Shown here: positions 1 through 44,050 of the stretch, one piece after another
How the letters are laid out: each line of letters starts with the position of its first letter
Position numbering within the stretch: position 1 is the first letter of the stretch
Origin: Chiloscyllium plagiosum
Taxonomy: Eukaryota
Direction of reading: 5' to 3'
Length of the DNA stretch: 64,000 nucleotides
NCBI RefSeq assembly: GCF_004010195.1
Contig: NC_057717.1
Coordinates: forward strand, 104,879,904 to 104,943,903
Notes under the pieces: model-generated
What the model saw: the letters and a program-made list of their open reading frames with translations, nothing else
Database searches by the model: none
What the model was told of the DNA's origin: nothing
Position numbers and translations under genes: made by a program

Positions 1-609
1 TCAATTGTATATCACTGTGGTGCTTCTCTGTTAGGTCTTTCATGCCAGTGGGACGGGAAATGCCAAGGGATGGTGATGGTACTATCTGGGACATTGCATG
101 TAGTGTAAGATTCCATGTGTATGACTATGTCAGTCTGCTGATTGACTAGTCTGTGAAATAGCTCTTCTAATTTTGGCACTCGCCTCCAGATGTTGGTAAG
201 AAGGACTTTGCAGAGTTGAAAGGGCTGATTTTTGATAATATTGTTGCTGCTGCTTCTTAGAATGGCAAATAGTCCATCTGATTTCATTCCTTTTTTGAGG
301 CTTTTTAGTGGTTGATAAATAGCTTGCTAAGTCATTTCAGAAGACAGCTGAGAGTCTGGAGTCACGTATAGGCCAGACAAGGTTATAGATGGCTGTTTTC
401 CTTCCCAAAAAGGACATTAGTGAACCAGATGGATTTTTACAATAATTGGCAAAACTTTCACAGTCATCATTTGATTTCTAATTCCCAATTTTTATCAAAT
501 TCAATTTTTGACCATCTGCTTTGATGGGTTTTGAACCAATGTCCCCAGAACATTTCAAATGTCTCTGATTACTAGTCCAGCAAAAATACCACGATACCAG
601 TGCATCCCC
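1..609 (-). mobile_element. 5' end of a LINE: tRNA-like head and UTR followed by the AP-endonuclease N-terminus
   Basis: On the minus strand there is an A box TGGTATCGTGG (599-589) and a B box GGTTCAAAACC (537-527). ORF 12..287 contains KVLLTNIW...EELFHRLVNQQTDIVIHMESY, which resembles the first APE motifs. Confidence 0.75.
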
Positions 610-721
610 AGTCCACTTAATTCTACATTGCATTTGGGAAACTCCAAAGTTTTTTTTTTACAGTGTCTCTCAATTTTTAGTTTAATTTAGCGCTGACAGC
701 AGTACTATGTAAAATACTCAC

Positions 722-811
722 CAACAGAAGAAATGTCTGCCAGATGATCTTCACCCTCTTCGGGATTCAGTAAATCAGTTTTACTCTTTTTTATTGTTCC
801 TCTTCTCATAG
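722..811 (-). CDS. CACNA1A: Cav2.1 coding exon (equivalent to exon 10), I-II linker
   Basis: ttctttccag|CT ATG AGA...TCT GTT G|gtgagt, 90 nt, phase 1 to 1. It translates to (A)[43 protein letters not shown] matches Cav2.1 rather than Cav2.2 or Cav2.3, so this exon drives the paralog assignment. Confidence 0.92.
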
Positions 812-974
812 CTGGAAAGAACAGATTGGAAAAGTGAAGAGAAATAAAATGGATGAGATAGAATAGAGAGGCTTAGTTCTTCCTAACAAAAGCCCAATCT
901 TAAAAGAAGGAAATAAGCTGTTTAAAATAATGAGTATCAAATTTTCATTATGGGATATTTTTGTAAAGTTTGCA

Positions 975-1260
975 TGACACTAGTAACTCATATGAACACT
1001 GATAGGTCTCACAGCATGTACTGAAGACTGTTCATTAGCACACTCCCAGTGAAAACTGACACACTCTCAGAACTCACTGTATATATTGATGCATTGTCAG
1101 GATATTCCTGAAATTACTGGTGTAATCCCAGATGCTCACTGCAAATACTGCCACTTCCAGAATTTCTGCAAATTACTAGCACTCTCCCAGAAAGCACCTG
1201 GGTATTACAGCTCAGTATTGGGAATTAAGTAAATATTAACAAACTCCTAAGGACACCCAG
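975..1260. repeat. degenerate ~30-bp tandem repeat
   Basis: Recurring ctg(c)aaat(t)actg...cccaga units, e.g. at 1108, 1139 and 1166. Confidence 0.45.
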
Positions 1261-2025
1261 TTCTAACCCCAACCTAAGTTTGTATTCTGTATGGATTGTG
1301 TGTTTCATAAAGTCATATAACATAGAAACAGACCCTTTGGTCCAACTCATCCATGTAGATCATGTTTCTTAAACTAAACTAGTCCCACTTGCCTGCATTT
1401 ACCCCCTATCCCTCTAAATCCTTCCAATTCATGGACCTGTCTAAATGTCTTTTAAATATTGTAATTGTACCTGCATCTACCTTTTCCCTTGGCAGTTCAT
1501 TCATTTCACATACCAACCACTCTGTGTGTGAAAAAGTAAATCCTCAGATCCCTTTTAAATTTTTCTCCTCTCACTCTAAAAATATGCCCCTAGTTTTGAA
1601 CTCACCCCCCCCCCCCCAAGGGAAAAGGTCTTTGCTATTCACCCTATCCATGCCCCTCATGATTTAAAAAACCTCTATAATATCACCTCTCAACCTCCTA
1701 CATTCCAGTGAAAAATGTCCAACCTACCCTTATAACTCAAACCTTCTGGTCCTGACAACATCCTGGTATATCTTTTCTGAACTGTATAGCCTTCCTATAG
1801 CAGGCCGAAGAGAACTATATATGGTACTCCAAACATGGCTTCACCAATGTCCTGCATAACATCAACATGATGAGCCAACTCCTATACTCAGTGGTCTAAT
1901 CAATGCAGGCAAGCATACTAAACATCTTCTTCATCATCCTGTCTATCTGTGACGCAAGTTTCAAAGAACGATGTACCTGAAGCCCTCTCTATTTGACAAA
2001 ACTACCTAGGCCATACCATTAACTG

Positions 2026-2340
2026 GTTGGCACAATGGCATAGTCGTTAGCACTGCTATCTCACAGGGACCTGGGTTCGATTCTACCCTTGGGCGACTGT
2101 CTATATGGAATTTGCACATTCTCCCCATGTCTGCATGGGCTTCCTCCCACAGTTCAAAGTTGTGCAGGTTAGGTGGTTTGGCTGTGCTAAATAGCCCCAT
2201 AGTGTGCAGGGATTTGTAGGCTACGTGGGTTAGCCATGAGAAATGCAGGGTTACAGGATTAAGGTGGGAGGGTGCTCATCGAAGGATTTGTGTGGACTTG
2301 TTGGGCTGAATGGACTGCTTCCAGACTGTAGAGATTCTGT
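2026..2340 (+). mobile_element. tRNA-derived V-SINE (HE1-like) nested in CR1
   Basis: A box at ~2036-2046, B box GGTTCGATTCT at 2074-2084, V-domain-like ggaatttgcacattctccccatgtctgcatggg, and a CR1-like 3' tail. Flanked by taactg at 2020-2025 and 2340-2345. Confidence 0.85.
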
Positions 2341-2768
2341 AACTGCATAAATCCTGCTTTTGTTTGTTTTACCAAAATGCAATATCCACATTAAACTCCA
2401 TCTACCACTCCTTAGCTCAATTGATCAAGATGCCGTTGCAATCTTAGATAACCTTCTTCACGATCAACTATGCCATCCAGTTTTGTGTCATCTGCAAACT
2501 TACTAACCAAGCCTCCTAAACTTTCAACCAAATCATTTATATAACTGACAAACAAAAGTGGACCCTGCACCGATCCCAACAGAACATTGCTGGTCACAGG
2601 CCTCCAGCCCAAAAAACAACTCTCCACCACCACCCTCTATTTCCTAACATCAAACCAATTTTGTATCCAATTGGAAAGCTCTCCCTTAATCCCATGTGAT
2701 CTAACTTTACTAATTAGTCTGCCATGCAGAACCTTGGCAAAGGCTTTACTAAAGTCCATATACACAAT

Positions 2769-2981
2769 AAAAACCAAAAGAGTTGTAGATGCTGTAAATC
2801 AGAGGCAAAATGGAAATTGCTGGTAAAGTTCAGCAGATCTGGCAGTATCTCTGGACAGAAATTAGAGCTAACATTTTGGGTTGATGCTTCTGAGAAAGGG
2901 TCACTTGACTCAAAACGCTAACTCTGATTCCACTGATGCTGCCAGACCTGCTGAGCTTTTCTAGCAATTTCTATTTTTGTC
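2769..2981. mobile_element. old hairpin-shaped non-autonomous PLE pseudo-LTR derivative
   Basis: Imperfect inverted arms (tcagcagatctggcagtatc / gatgctgccagacctgctga). TSD tccata-ta(c/g)acaat at 2755-2768 and 2982-2995. Confidence 0.7.
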
Positions 2982-3204
2982 TCCATATAGACAATGTCTA
3001 CTGATATGCCCTTAATCCTTTTGGTTATATCTTCAAAAACGCAATCAAGTTTGTGAGACATGATTTCCCACACCCAAAGCTACGCTGATTATCTCTAATC
3101 AGTCCTTGTCTCCCAAAATGCATGTAAATCCTATCTCTCAGAAACACCTCCAACAATCTACCCACCACTGATGTCAGACTTACAAGTCTACTGATATTGT
3201 TGTT

Positions 3205-3392
3205 AACTTAAGGGTTAAGTCATGGCAGGAGATCCAAGATCGGTGTCATGCTCTTCCTGTGCAATGTGGGAATTCAGGGACCCTTCTGATGTCCCTGACT
3301 CTTTCACATGCCGGAAGTGTGTCCAACTGCAGCTCCTGCCTGACTGCTTGATGGCTCTGGAGCTACAGTTGGATTCACTTTGGAGCATCTCG
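3205..3392 (+). mobile_element. CR1 ORF1 N-terminal zinc-finger/leucine-zipper fragment
   Basis: From the ATG at 3222: MAGDPRSVSCSSCAMWEFRDPSDVPDSFTCRKCVQLQLL...LELQLDSLWSI (CxxC...CxxC followed by leucine-rich heptads). Confidence 0.7.
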
Positions 3393-3399
3393 CCATCTT

Positions 3400-3925
3400 A
3401 ATGAAGAATTCTACATTATGGTCACTCTTCCCCCAAGTAGCTCACACCACAAGGTTACTAATTAATCCTCTCTCATTACACAATACCCAGTCAAGGAAGA
3501 CCTGCTCTCTGGTTGGTTCAAAGAAGTCATCCATCATACATTCCAGGAAATCCTCCTCTATCACATTGCTACAACTTTGGTTGGTCCAGTCAATATGAAG
3601 ATTGAAGTCACCCATAATAACTGCTGGATCCTTTCTGATGCATCTCTAATTTCCTATTTGGTGCCATCCCCAACATCACAACTACTTGAATACACTTAAC
3701 AAATTCTTCACCATCCAAGCCCCTAACACTATGACAGTCTGTGTTTGGAAAGCTATAATCCCCCTCTATTACACTATTTTCTTACATATATCTGACATCT
3801 CTCTACATATTTGTTCCTCAACTTCCATCTGACTATTGGGGGCCTATAGTACAATTCCATCAAGGTGATCGTTTCCTTCTTATTTCTGAATTCTATCCAT
3901 ACAGTTTCACTGGATTGGGTATACA
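3400..3925 (-). mobile_element. CR1 endonuclease fragments
   Basis: ORF 3774..3968 reads ETVWIEFRNKKETITLMELYYRPP. A GDFN-coding motif lies near 3600-3620. Confidence 0.7.
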
Positions 3926-3939
3926 TATTGGTAGTTTTT

Positions 3940-6460
3940 TTTATTAATTTGTGGGATGTGGGCATCACTGGCTGGCCAGCATTTATTGTCCACCCCTAAT
4001 TATCTTGAGAAGGTCAGGGTGAGCTGCCTCTTGAACCACTGCAGTCCACCTGCTGTGGATTAACCCACAATGCCCTTAGGGAGGGAATTCCAAGATTTTG
4101 ACCCAGCGACAGTGAAGGAACGGCGAAATATTTCCAAGTCTGGATGCTGAATGTTTTGGAGGGGAACTTGAAGATGGTGGTGTCCCCATATACCTGCTGC
4201 CCTTGTCATTCTAGATACAAGTGCTCATGGGTTTGGAAGATGCTGAGGTGTTTGAGGATCTTTAGTGCATTTCTGCAGTGCATATTTTAGATAGTACACA
4301 CTGCTGCTACTGAGTGCTGGTGTTGGAGGGAGTAGTTGCTTATGGATGTAGTGCCAATCAGCAGGCTGCTTTGTCCTGGATGGTGTTGAGCTTCTTGAGA
4401 GTTGTTGGGGATGCCCTCATTCAGGCAAGTGGGGAGTATTCCATTACATCATGCTGCTGACTTATGCCTTGTAGATAGTGGACAGACTCTGGGGAGTCAG
4501 GAGGTAAGATACTTGCCACAATATTCCTAGCCTCTGACCTGCTCTTGTAGCCACTGTGTTTGTATGGTGAGTCCAATTAAGTTTCTGGTCAATGGTAATC
4601 CCCAGGATGTTGATACTGGGGGATTTAGTGATGGTAATACCATTGAATGTACAGGGCCTGTGGTTAGACTTTCTCTTATTAGGATGGTCATAGCCTGGCA
4701 ATTGTTACTTGCCACTTGTCAGCTCAAGCCTGGATATTGTCCAGATGTTGTTGCATTTGAACATGGACTGCATCAGTATCTGAGGAGTTGCAAATGGTGC
4801 TGAACATTGTGCAATCATTGGTGACCATCCCCACTTCTGACCATATGACAGAGGGAAGATCATTGGTGAAGCAGCTGAAGATGGTTAGGCCTAGGACACT
4901 ACCTGGAGGGACTCCTGCAGAGATGTTCTGGAGCTAAGATGACTGACCTCCAAAAATCACAAACATCTTCCTTTGTGTCAGGATTGACTCCAATCACCAC
5001 AGAGAGTTTCCCTCAATACCCACTCATGCCAGTTTTGCCAGGACTCCTTGATGCCACACTTGGTCGAATTCAGCCTTGATGTCAAGGGCTATCACTCTCA
5101 CCTCCCCTCTGGAATTCAGCTCTTTTCCCATGTTTGAACCAAGGCGGTAATGAGGTCAGGAGTTGAGTGGTCCTGGCAGAACCCAAACTGGGAGTCACTC
5201 AGCAGGTTTTTGCTGAGTAGGTGCTGCTTGATAGCACTGTTGATGACTCCTGCTATCACTTTACTGATGATGGAGAGTAGACTGACGGAGTGGTAATTGG
5301 CCAGGTTGGATTTGTCCTGCTTTTTATGTACAGCACATAGCTTGGTAATTTTCCACATTGTTAAGACAGAAAACAGTGTTGTAACTGTAGTGGAACAGCT
5401 CGCCTGGGGGAGCGGCAGGTTCTGGAGCACAAGTCTTTAGTACTCTTGCTGGAATGTTGTCAGGGCCCATAGAATTTGCAATATCCAGTGCCTCCAACTG
5501 TTTCTTGATATCACATGGGGTGAATCGAATTGGCTGAAGATTGGTATCTGTTATGCTGGGAATCACTGGAGGAGGTCGAGATGGATCATACACTAGCTGA
5601 AGATTACTGAGAAAGCTTCAGCCTTACCTCTTGCACGGATTGTGTTTGGGCTCTTCCACCATCGAGGATGGGGATATTTGTGGAGCTTCCTCCTCTAGTG
5701 AGTTACTTAATCATCCACCACCACTCACGACTGAATGTGTTAGGACTGCACAGTTTAGATCTGATCTGTTGGTTGTGGGATCACTTAGCTCTGTCAATGA
5801 CTTGCTGCTATTGCTGTTTGGCATGCAAGTAGTCCTGTTTGGTGGCTTCATCAGGTTGATACCTCATTTTCAGATATGCCTGGTGCTGCTCCTGGAATGC
5901 CCTCCCGCACTGTCCATTGAACCAGGGTTGATCCCTTGGCTTGATGGTAATGGTTAAATGGGGATATGCCGGGCCTTGAGATTACAGATTATGCTGAAGT
6001 ACAAATCTGCTGTTGTTGATGGCCCACAGTGCCTCATGGATGCCCAGTCCTGAGTTGCTAGATCTGATTGAAGTCTGTCCTATTTAGTATTGTGATAGTG
6101 CCACACAACACGATGGAAGGTATTCTCAATGTGGAGAGTGGACCTCATCTTCACAAGTACTATACGGTGGTCACTCTTACCGATACTGTCATGGACAGAT
6201 GCAGCTGGAGGATTGGTAAGGATGAGGCCAAATATATTTTTCCTGCTTGTTGGCTCCCTCACCACTTGCTGTGGACCCAGCCTAGCAGCTATGCCCTTTA
6301 GGAACTAATCAGTTCGATCTGTACTGCTGTTGAGCCACTGGTGGTGGTGGACATTGAAATCCCCCACCCACAGTACATTCTCTGCCCTTACCATCCTTTG
6401 CTTCCTCTAAATGTTGTTCAACATAGAGGAGAACAAATTCATCAGCTGAGGTAGGATGAT
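3940..6460 (-). mobile_element. decayed CR1/L2-group LINE of a second family (EN to RT to 3' tail)
   Basis: ORF fragments VREPTSRKNIFGLILTN..SDHRIV (EN), GPDNIPARVLKTCAPE, NYHSVSLLSIISKV..QFGF (RT) and INILGITIDQKLNW. The 3' tail is at 3940-4010. Confidence 0.88.
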
Positions 6461-39272: not shown

Positions 39273-39500
39273 GAATCTGGAATTAAGAGTTTAATGGTGA
39301 CCACGAATCCATTGCCAATTGTTGGAAAAATCACTAATGTCCTTTTGGGAAGCAAACAGCCATCCTTACCTGGTCTGGCCTACATGCAGCTCCAGACCAA
39401 CAACAATGTGATTGACTGTTAACTGCCTTCTGGGCAGCTAGGGATGGGCAATAAATGCTGCCTAGCCAGCGATGCCCTCATCCCATGAATGAATAAAGAG
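39273..39500 (+). mobile_element. 5'-truncated SINE with the body of the 1-609 element and the 3' tail of the 3940-6460 LINE
   Basis: 39331-39397 matches the reverse complement of 355-423. 39432-39497 matches the reverse complement of ~3940-4005 and also 43979-44048. Confidence 0.8.
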
Positions 39501-43879: not shown

Positions 43880-44050
43880 TTAAATGCAACAAAATCATGG
43901 AACTCCCTCCACGACAGCACTTTGTGTATTCAAAAAGACTAAGCTGTTTAAGAAAGCAGCTCATCACTGCCTCCTCCAGGGCAATTAGGAATTGGCAATA
44001 AATATTGGCCTAGCTAGTGAAGCCCACATTCCCTTGAATGAATAAAAACA
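43880..44050 (+). mobile_element. 3' tail of the second LINE family
   Basis: ggaactccctcc...aagaaagcagctcatcac...gggcaattaggaattggcaataaatattggcctagc...gaatgaataaaaa is the reverse complement of ~3940-4095. Confidence 0.75.

Follow-up and report, generated by a model that had tools for sequence, protein, structure and literature searches.

The window analyzed here is a 64,000-nucleotide stretch of the Chiloscyllium plagiosum genome (G000:C8:104879904-104943903), and its first 609 nucleotides, when read on the minus strand from 609 to 1, form the 5′ part of a decayed non-LTR retrotransposon of ~3.06 kb. This copy begins at G609, the first base of a tRNA-derived-type head (516..609, minus strand) that constitutes the true 5′ terminus of the element. 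Within the head, an A-box-like motif at 599-589 has two mismatches to TRGCNNAGTGG and a B-box-like motif at 537-527 has one mismatch to GGTTCGANNCC, the consensus patterns for such boxes. These positions agree with the tRNA-like A and B boxes that an earlier, sequence-only reading had placed at 599-527. The head continues into a body (338..515, minus strand) that is common to a local SINE, and head and body together make up the 5′ UTR of the LINE. This SINE-type body had also been recognized, but with narrower limits (~500-350) than those found here (515-338). Over 260 nt (609-355), the window copy is 72% identical to the 5′ module of its family. In SINE copies, the switch to the tail occurs after the CTG that is located here at 340-338, whereas the window copy reads on. 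No A-run, SINE tail, or repeat lies between body and ORF in the window copy, in agreement with the earlier reading that a SINE tail is missing there.

Downstream of the body is a LINE-specific leader (198..337, minus strand) with two ATGs, one at 335-333 that is followed by TAG and one at 287-285. The leader is succeeded by the N-terminal part of an apurinic-type endonuclease (EN) coding region (1..197, minus strand), which is open to position 12. The N-terminal motif T-N-I-W of the endonuclease is encoded by codons 197-186 of the minus strand, within the open frame 326..12. Thus, the ORF with APE N-terminal motifs seen in the sequence-only reading does carry such a motif, but the 104-aa piece encoded in the window itself yielded no EN match in Pfam and none by phmmer against the PDB. 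The EN identity of the window ORF is assigned because other members of the family, rather than this piece, match Pfam. The window copy is heavily decayed, and its longest frame does not exceed 115 aa.

The copy overruns the left edge of the window by ~2.45 kb, to ~G000:C8:104877455, and the part outside the window comprises the rest of EN, the RT, the C-terminal region, and a tail of ~70 nt. A stretch fetched from the left of the window (L031, G000:C8:104871000-104880700) holds this copy as its reverse complement 187-3246, which was aligned to full-length copies in four blocks. The same stretch has minus-strand frames to the left of the window, for example at 3742-4167 and 1179-1370, that resemble transmembrane and S4 segments. 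These may be parts of a voltage-gated calcium channel of the Cav2-like type, in which case the LINE copy would sit in sense orientation within an intron; Pfam gave no match for the channel-like frames at E up to 0.01. L031:1-330 (minus strand) and the upstream flank of another locus (L055) come from a second LINE family in a far better state of preservation, which has a weak RVT_1 match (23.8 bits) and 228,971 first-look candidates, and for which most of the 150 scored matches are stop-free. Elsewhere in the window, a 5′-truncated copy of the local SINE (body plus tail) is present at 39274-39497 on the plus strand, and tail-only fragments of the LINE/SINE 3′ end are present at 3936-4036 (minus strand) and 43943-44048 (plus strand).

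Full-length copies of the family are 3.05-3.25 kb long and have the layout of ~295 nt of SINE-like sequence, a short leader, one EN-RT frame of ~975 codons, and a tail of ~70 nt. The majority sequence of nine copies is 3,289 nt long, with a coding frame from ~296 to 3,220. The single long EN-RT frame that had been sought in a consensus is therefore present, although in this crude majority it is broken by two stops and two frame changes; a 28-copy majority has an uninterrupted frame of 465 codons that spans leader and EN. Natural pieces of family copies other than the part in the window match Pfam RVT_1 at 40.5 bits (P0002) and 48.6 bits (L017:1-429, minus strand), relative to a cut-off of 29.6, and Exo_endo_phos_2 at 36.5 bits (a piece of L010) and 28.7 bits (a piece of L014), relative to a cut-off of 27.4. 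The ORF ends with TAG ~70 nt before the 3′ end, and the ~70-nt tail, in which a long interrupted hairpin is possible, finishes with AATAAA and an A-rich run. The single EN-RT ORF (of the ~950-aa class) and a specific 3′ tail common to a partner SINE are L2-type features, and the family is probably L2-like, an assignment that leans on the published account of SINEs with an L2-type tail (PMC5499810).

Searches for relatives returned mostly fragments or distant proteins. With a profile of natural EN pieces, 319 proteins were recovered at E up to 1e-3. The close matches among them are short and fragmentary and include two whale-shark gene models. The intact relatives are distant; each is a single protein of 944-983 aa in which EN begins 3-25 residues after the Met, and a cluster look-up attached no clade name to them. 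When compared with longer proteins, the EN piece had no match and the RT piece had only two mis-annotated ones, including one from catshark. Phmmer against the PDB found nothing for EN or RT pieces, and a metagenome scan with one distant relative found only loci that are 22-30% identical. No intact ORF was found in ~80 copies examined, all of which are decayed, and in the RT search all but the partial ones among the 150 matches listed contain stops. A search for younger copies by means of exact 30-mers led to three that are only 81-82% identical to the L032 copy and have deletions, and these are therefore no younger. Given that all copies are decayed, we infer the autonomy of the element from majority sequences.

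Other copies show that these parts form one element. A query consisting of window:1-660 (minus strand) matched at least 39 other places in the same genome with ~70% identity (E from 1e-42 to 4e-77) when 40 of 6,126 first-look candidates were scored. At all 29 loci that were fetched with this query, the SINE-like part and EN are contiguous, and the SINE/LINE boundary is crossed in a single alignment by 27 of them and with a gap by the other two. Because this junction query favors copies that have both parts, a second sample was drawn with an EN-only query taken from a better copy, and the 480 nt upstream of 38 independent matches were examined. In this sample, 23 of 38 copies extend to head reference position 20 or less, and 17 extend to position 8 or less. 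The remaining 15 start at scattered points (38 to 370) amid unrelated flanks, and these starts reflect 5′ truncations, internal duplication, or inserted unrelated repeats. No second common 5′ end was found when the upstream sequences of these 15 copies were compared. Starts that cluster at ~150 and ~259 had been considered as an alternative 5′ end, but these proved to be truncations, a 29-nt deletion of the L032 lineage, or insertions of other repeats. The junction is shared by the whole family, and its uniqueness to the locus in the window, which would have counted against the original proposal, was not found.

The head also marks the outer limit of the family. In an alignment of 28 LINE 5′ ends, similarity ends just upstream of the GGGGAGG start, and the sequence abutting the head has no pairwise similarity among 22 head-bearing loci over 1.25-1.5 kb of upstream flank. 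This lack of upstream similarity indicates that full-length members have neither an ORF1 nor any further 5′ UTR, and thus the absence of ORF1 that had been proposed from one copy extends to the family. A 30-mer spanning the LINE leader junction of the young subfamily has 510 genome matches with no more than three mismatches, and its reversed control has none. Two LINE subfamilies, which are set apart by a 6-nt leader indel, both bear the head. As in other LINEs, many copies are 5′ truncated, LTRs are absent, and the 3′ end is a common one, with the same 3′ tail in all long copies. The flanks of nine copies, inspected by eye, have only TSD-like matches of 5-6 nt, which is the level of chance, and the copies are old.

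Several copies are associated with other repeats. Two 5′-truncated LINE copies (L065 and L085) lie at slightly different points within the same kind of unrelated repeat, and their upstream flanks are 77% identical over 115 nt, which may be coincidental or due to a preferred site of insertion. In three copies (L074, L075, and L089), the LINE head or body is interrupted or abutted by a hairpin-forming repeat, which in two of the three lies right at the CTAATCCAGA stretch of the head. At another locus (L034, as oriented), a different tRNA-like SINE that starts with GGCAGCATGGTGGCACAGTGG is located just upstream of position 1024 and abuts a 5′-truncated LINE copy. This SINE is probably the other common elasmobranch SINE, of the HE1/V-SINE type.

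The head had been described as fused directly to the endonuclease ORF, but this description does not hold, since a LINE-specific leader of ~140 nt separates the SINE-like part from EN, and in most copies its ATGs are offset by -1 from the EN frame. A majority built from 24 young copies has a TGA, overlapping the first leader ATG, at the point where the EN frame becomes open, and the ~50 codons from this stop to the endonuclease are free of ATG. Both leader ATGs are -1 relative to EN in the modal state of the two subfamilies, and a short upstream frame of 39 codons runs from the second ATG to a point just inside EN. The distance from the second ATG to an anchor in EN (an ACC codon) has modes of 89 and 95 nt, both of which are 2 mod 3, and the frame of the leader ATG relative to EN is -1 in 15 of 26 copies and in frame in five of 26. 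The corresponding distance in the window copy is 90 nt, which places its second ATG in frame, but this in-frame ATG at 287 results from a 5-nt gap that the window copy has relative to the family. No canonical slippery heptamer is conserved. The stretch C AAA AAC was evaluated as a -1 frameshift site and rejected, as it is non-canonical and missing from the older subfamily. As far as can be judged from the majority sequences, the predicted arrangement from leader to EN gives the EN-RT frame no AUG of its own.

The LINE and the local SINE are closely related. The SINE is ~350 nt long and abundant (40 copies scored of 9,356 candidates, with 22 aligned). When majority strings are compared, its first ~295 nt are colinear with the LINE 5′ end, with ~20 lineage-specific differences, after which the two diverge. 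Following the motif CTGCCCTCTG, the SINE jumps to the last three codons of the LINE, the stop codon, and the 3′ UTR, and the SINE and LINE tails are homologous. A second form of the SINE has 25 extra LINE bases, including the first leader ATG, and then the tail. Junctions were counted with 30-mers over the whole genome, allowing no more than three mismatches and with all reversed-pattern controls at 0, which gave at least 13,841 matches for the first (type 1) SINE junction, 1,092 for the second (type 2), and 510 for the LINE continuation of the young subfamily.

In 24 LINE copies, identity to the majority is 88.9% for the module shared with the SINE and 91.0% for the LINE-specific part. The two parts are equally worn, which indicates that they arrived together. 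Moreover, the colinearity of the SINE with both untranslated ends of the LINE implies that SINE and LINE are one lineage, with and without a coding interior. The earlier proposal that an autonomous retrotransposon acquired a tRNA-derived 5′ end goes further than this, as the data fix no direction. The SINE may equally be a LINE whose ORF was deleted, or the LINE head may have come from the SINE by template switching within shared sequence. Given the exact colinearity, a single deletion would be the simpler story. The SINE-to-LINE direction would require the switch point to coincide with the body/tail junction of the SINE, unless that part was itself derived from the LINE. Two SINE loci on different contigs, L103 (C10:55906492-55906890) and L104 (C1:4469054-4469452), are identical including their flanks, which is due to either a recent segmental duplication or an assembly duplicate.

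The head has promoter boxes but is not recognized as a tRNA. In the LINE majority, the A box (TRGCNNAGTGG) and the B box (GGTTCGANNCC) are both exact, at ~+11 and ~+74, and among 41 LINE heads the A box is present with no more than one mismatch in 26 and the B box in 23. LINE and SINE copies start at the same base, ~10 nt before the A box. ARAGORN found no tRNA in the window copy, nor did Rfam, which was also negative for 11 other LINE loci. When the Rfam tRNA model was applied to 20 heads, only one reached 20.2 bits, which is below the gathering score of 29. Similarly, no cloverleaf appears in the fold of a well-kept natural head (z = -1.6).

Runs of T merit separate consideration. The sense strand of the majority (3,289 nt) has no runs of four or more T, compared to 15 such runs of A, 11 of C, and 7 of G, and natural copies have 1-7 runs of T compared to 12-24 of A. 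The T-run depletion that the sequence-only reading had suggested looking for is thus apparent in the count, but it is not significant against composition-aware nulls (P ~0.1). The number of T runs expected is 2.15 for a dinucleotide shuffle (P = 0.10), 1.85 for a synonymous-codon shuffle (P = 0.11), and 2.21 for a whole-codon shuffle (P = 0.09). The composition of the majority is itself poor in T runs, with 7 TTT compared to 82 AAA and a ratio of TTT to TTC codons of 3:14. An 886-nt ORF piece from the better preserved co-resident LINE family, represented by one copy only, has six runs of four or more T and a TTT to TTC ratio of 12:2. Together, the exact boxes and the T-run-free majority would make the sequence permissive for Pol III.

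Overall, we conclude with a probability of about 0.8 that window 609-1, read on the minus strand, represents the first fifth, counted from the 5′ end, of a full-length but old and dead copy of a high-copy elasmobranch non-LTR retrotransposon with which a SINE is colinear at both ends. The evidence supports the core of the original proposal, namely a replicating LINE family that has a tRNA-type SINE head and no ORF1. We observed its architecture, its 5′ terminus, the absence of ORF1, and the copy number, and also that at least two LINE subfamilies inherited the head vertically. As we reconstruct it, the element would consist of an A/B-box, tRNA-derived head of ~95 nt, a SINE-type body to approximately nucleotide 295, a leader of ~140 nt with a short upstream frame, one EN-RT frame of ~975 codons, and a 3′ UTR of ~70 nt with a stem-loop and an AATAAA/A-rich end. 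The SINE of ~350 nt would then correspond to the LINE 5′ UTR plus the last three codons, the stop codon, and the 3′ UTR. Target-primed reverse transcription presumably moved the element, and the RT would have recognized the shared 3′ tail in the stringent manner of UnaL2. Because the head persists at the 5′ terminus over subfamilies, the head and body themselves appear to fix the start site, and they probably act as an internal promoter through which every generation regains the same first base.

Which polymerase made the 3.3-kb RNA is a separate question, and for this we give some preference, falling a little short of even odds, to Pol II. If so, the LINE would produce a capped transcript with a SINE-derived 5′ UTR, and the A and B boxes would matter only for the SINE. 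The head and body could have been obtained by template switching when the RT reached the 5′ end, or the SINE could have been cut out of the LINE, and in either case they would serve as, or ride with, a Pol II internal promoter. Kojima (PMC5786205, PMC10886601) regards every known LINE as transcribed by Pol II, and chimeras formed by template switching of RT are established according to work cited in PMC5499810. The AATAAA at the 3′ end of both the LINE and SINE tails is compatible with Pol II, as is the absence of T runs, which lies within what composition predicts. However, transcripts from a Pol II promoter in the original 5′ UTR would begin 3′ of an added head, so that the following generation would lack it, but 23 of 38 EN-sampled copies, and two subfamilies, have the head at their 5′ end. 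In addition, no Pol II start signal was seen at the first base of the head.

Transcription by Pol III is a possibility that we hold more tentatively, and other arrangements account for a minor share of our expectations. A Pol III-driven LINE would use its A/B-box head to make the full 3.3-kb RNA, which would serve both as template and as an uncapped message that is poorly but sufficiently translated, and the SINE would be the same transcription unit minus the ORF. With the same head, the SINE reached at least 13,841 copies, LINE and SINE copies have their start base in common, and the head was retained through at least two LINE subfamilies. The majority, with no T runs in 3,289 nt and a TTT to TTC ratio of 3:14, differs from the single co-resident LINE copy (six runs in 886 nt, 12:2), but the absence of T runs loses significance once composition is kept (P 0.09-0.11). 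Speculatively, initiation without a cap would be in keeping with the unusual start of the EN frame. Cap and poly(A) are absent from Pol III RNAs, and no natural Pol III transcript is known to be ~3.3 kb in length or to have such coding capacity. Pol III processivity is also regarded as a limit, at ~1.3 kb or less, in the discussion of short elements by Kojima (PMC10886601). It is rather unlikely that the strongest form of this proposal is correct, in which an autonomous LINE would have a working tRNA-derived Pol III promoter at its own 5′ end and Deu SINEs of the SacSINE1/LmeSINE1 type would be its ORF-deleted form. Such an element would make a 3.3-kb coding RNA from Pol III that is translated without a conventional AUG or a cap.

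A very improbable alternative is that the head is an RNA-processing signal, such that cleavage of read-through host transcripts by an activity of the RNase P/Z type would generate the exact LINE 5′ end. This idea draws on an analogy with the self-cleaving HDV-like ribozymes described at the 5′ ends of certain LINEs (R2, RTE, and L1Tc; PMC5786205), and the window copy does have a sense orientation within an apparent intron. However, the head lacks an acceptor stem or cloverleaf, and 19 of 20 heads failed the tRNA covariance model, which would make it a poor substrate for RNase P. Finally, a local accident, in which a SINE inserted beside a 5′-truncated LINE and lost its tail by deletion, would be suggested only by the appearance of a single locus and is refuted by the base-for-base junction in 29 of 29 other loci and in 23 of the 38 loci sampled with EN, which are spread over many chromosomes and set in unrelated flanks, as well as by the 510 matches of the leader 30-mer compared to none for its reversed control.

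The local SINE is presumably a SacSINE1-like element, an assignment that follows a published description. Its body would likewise be of the Deu type, to judge from the structure given in that description (PMC5499810). As presented by Luchetti et al. (2017, PMC5499810), SacSINE1/LmeSINE1 elements have a tRNA head, a Deu domain, and a tail homologous to L2-2_CM, and they occur in sharks, chimaera, and coelacanth, with representatives in whale shark and skate. They resemble the local SINE in having a tRNA-related A/B-box head, a central body, and a tail common to an L2-type LINE, and their length of up to ~460 bp accommodates the ~350 nt found here, the likeness being one of description. The homology between SINE and LINE noted in the account of these elements is confined to the tail, whereas the shark LINE bears the SINE head and body as well.

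Parallels for the LINE can be found in the eel and zebrafish elements UnaL2 and ZfL2-2, L2-clade LINEs that are drawn with single ORFs in the legend to figure 5 of PMC1636434. With such single-ORF L2 LINEs known, the earlier suggestion that this element lost an ORF1 is unneeded. Like the shark LINE, they are short elements with a single EN-RT ORF and no ORF1, and their 3′ tail stem-loop is common to a tRNA-derived SINE. This conserved stem-loop is needed for their retrotransposition, according to the same source (PMC1636434). Unlike the shark LINE, their 5′ UTRs are not reported as SINE heads in that description, and the GGAUA tail loop and UGUAA repeats given for UnaL2/ZfL2-2 (PMC1636434) are not seen in the shark family. 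In the full-text literature that we searched, no LINE with a SINE-type head is described, although a curated Repbase or Dfam consensus may already show one.

Other composite retrotransposons share some of these features. One example of a bipartite non-autonomous LINE is ingi/RIME. Bipartite elements of this kind, as outlined in PMC5786205, are like the shark SINE in being short and in combining both termini of an autonomous LINE, and the idea that LINE 5′ UTRs supplied the bodies of SINEs is put forward there. In the cases surveyed by Kojima (2018, PMC5786205), 5′ parts of LINEs within SINE bodies come only from RTE and Vingi, and the small-RNA head is pictured as added after deletion of the LINE. 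The present case departs from that picture, with an L2-like LINE whose autonomous form has the head itself. Chimeric U6-L1 retrocopies (Buzdin 2002, as cited in PMC5499810) also have a small Pol III RNA joined 5′ of a LINE, but according to that citation they are single, dead-on-arrival pseudogenes with 5′-truncated L1, whereas the shark chimera is a replicating full-length family. The TRIMp3 elements (Cassandra, Helenus, and Ajax) are LTR retrotransposons with Pol III promoters derived from tRNA or 5S RNA (Kojima 2024, PMC10886601), and thus likewise are non-SINE retrotransposons with a small-RNA-derived promoter of the Pol III type. As characterized there, however, TRIMp3 elements are non-coding, LTR-type, non-autonomous, and no longer than ~1.3 kb, whereas the shark element, at 3.2 kb, has EN-RT coding capacity. 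The sequence class to which the SINE body presumably belongs has another history as well, since in the form of AmnSINE1 it is said to have yielded conserved non-coding elements in amniotes (PMC5786205).

What sets the shark family apart is the extent of what SINE and LINE have in common. The inherited 5′ end of an L2-like LINE is made up of an entire SINE head and body, and the SINE corresponds to the two untranslated ends of the LINE. By definition, SINEs are parasites with a Pol III head whose only sequence in common with a Pol II-transcribed LINE is a 3′ tail, and the origin of conserved SINE bodies such as the Deu domain is a long-standing question. The family therefore offers a concrete case for the birth of a SINE from its LINE, or for donation by the SINE to its LINE, and for asking whether a retrotransposon that encodes protein can be driven by a promoter of the Pol III type and what role a Deu-type body has at the 5′ end of a LINE. 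The original function of the Deu-type sequence class is of wider interest, given the conserved non-coding elements of amniotes. If the head is a mere passenger, an annotation point remains, in that calls of a SINE plus a LINE at loci of this kind are one element rather than two. If the Pol III-promoter reading were true, the classic SINE head with its enigmatic body would be the 5′ UTR of a LINE.
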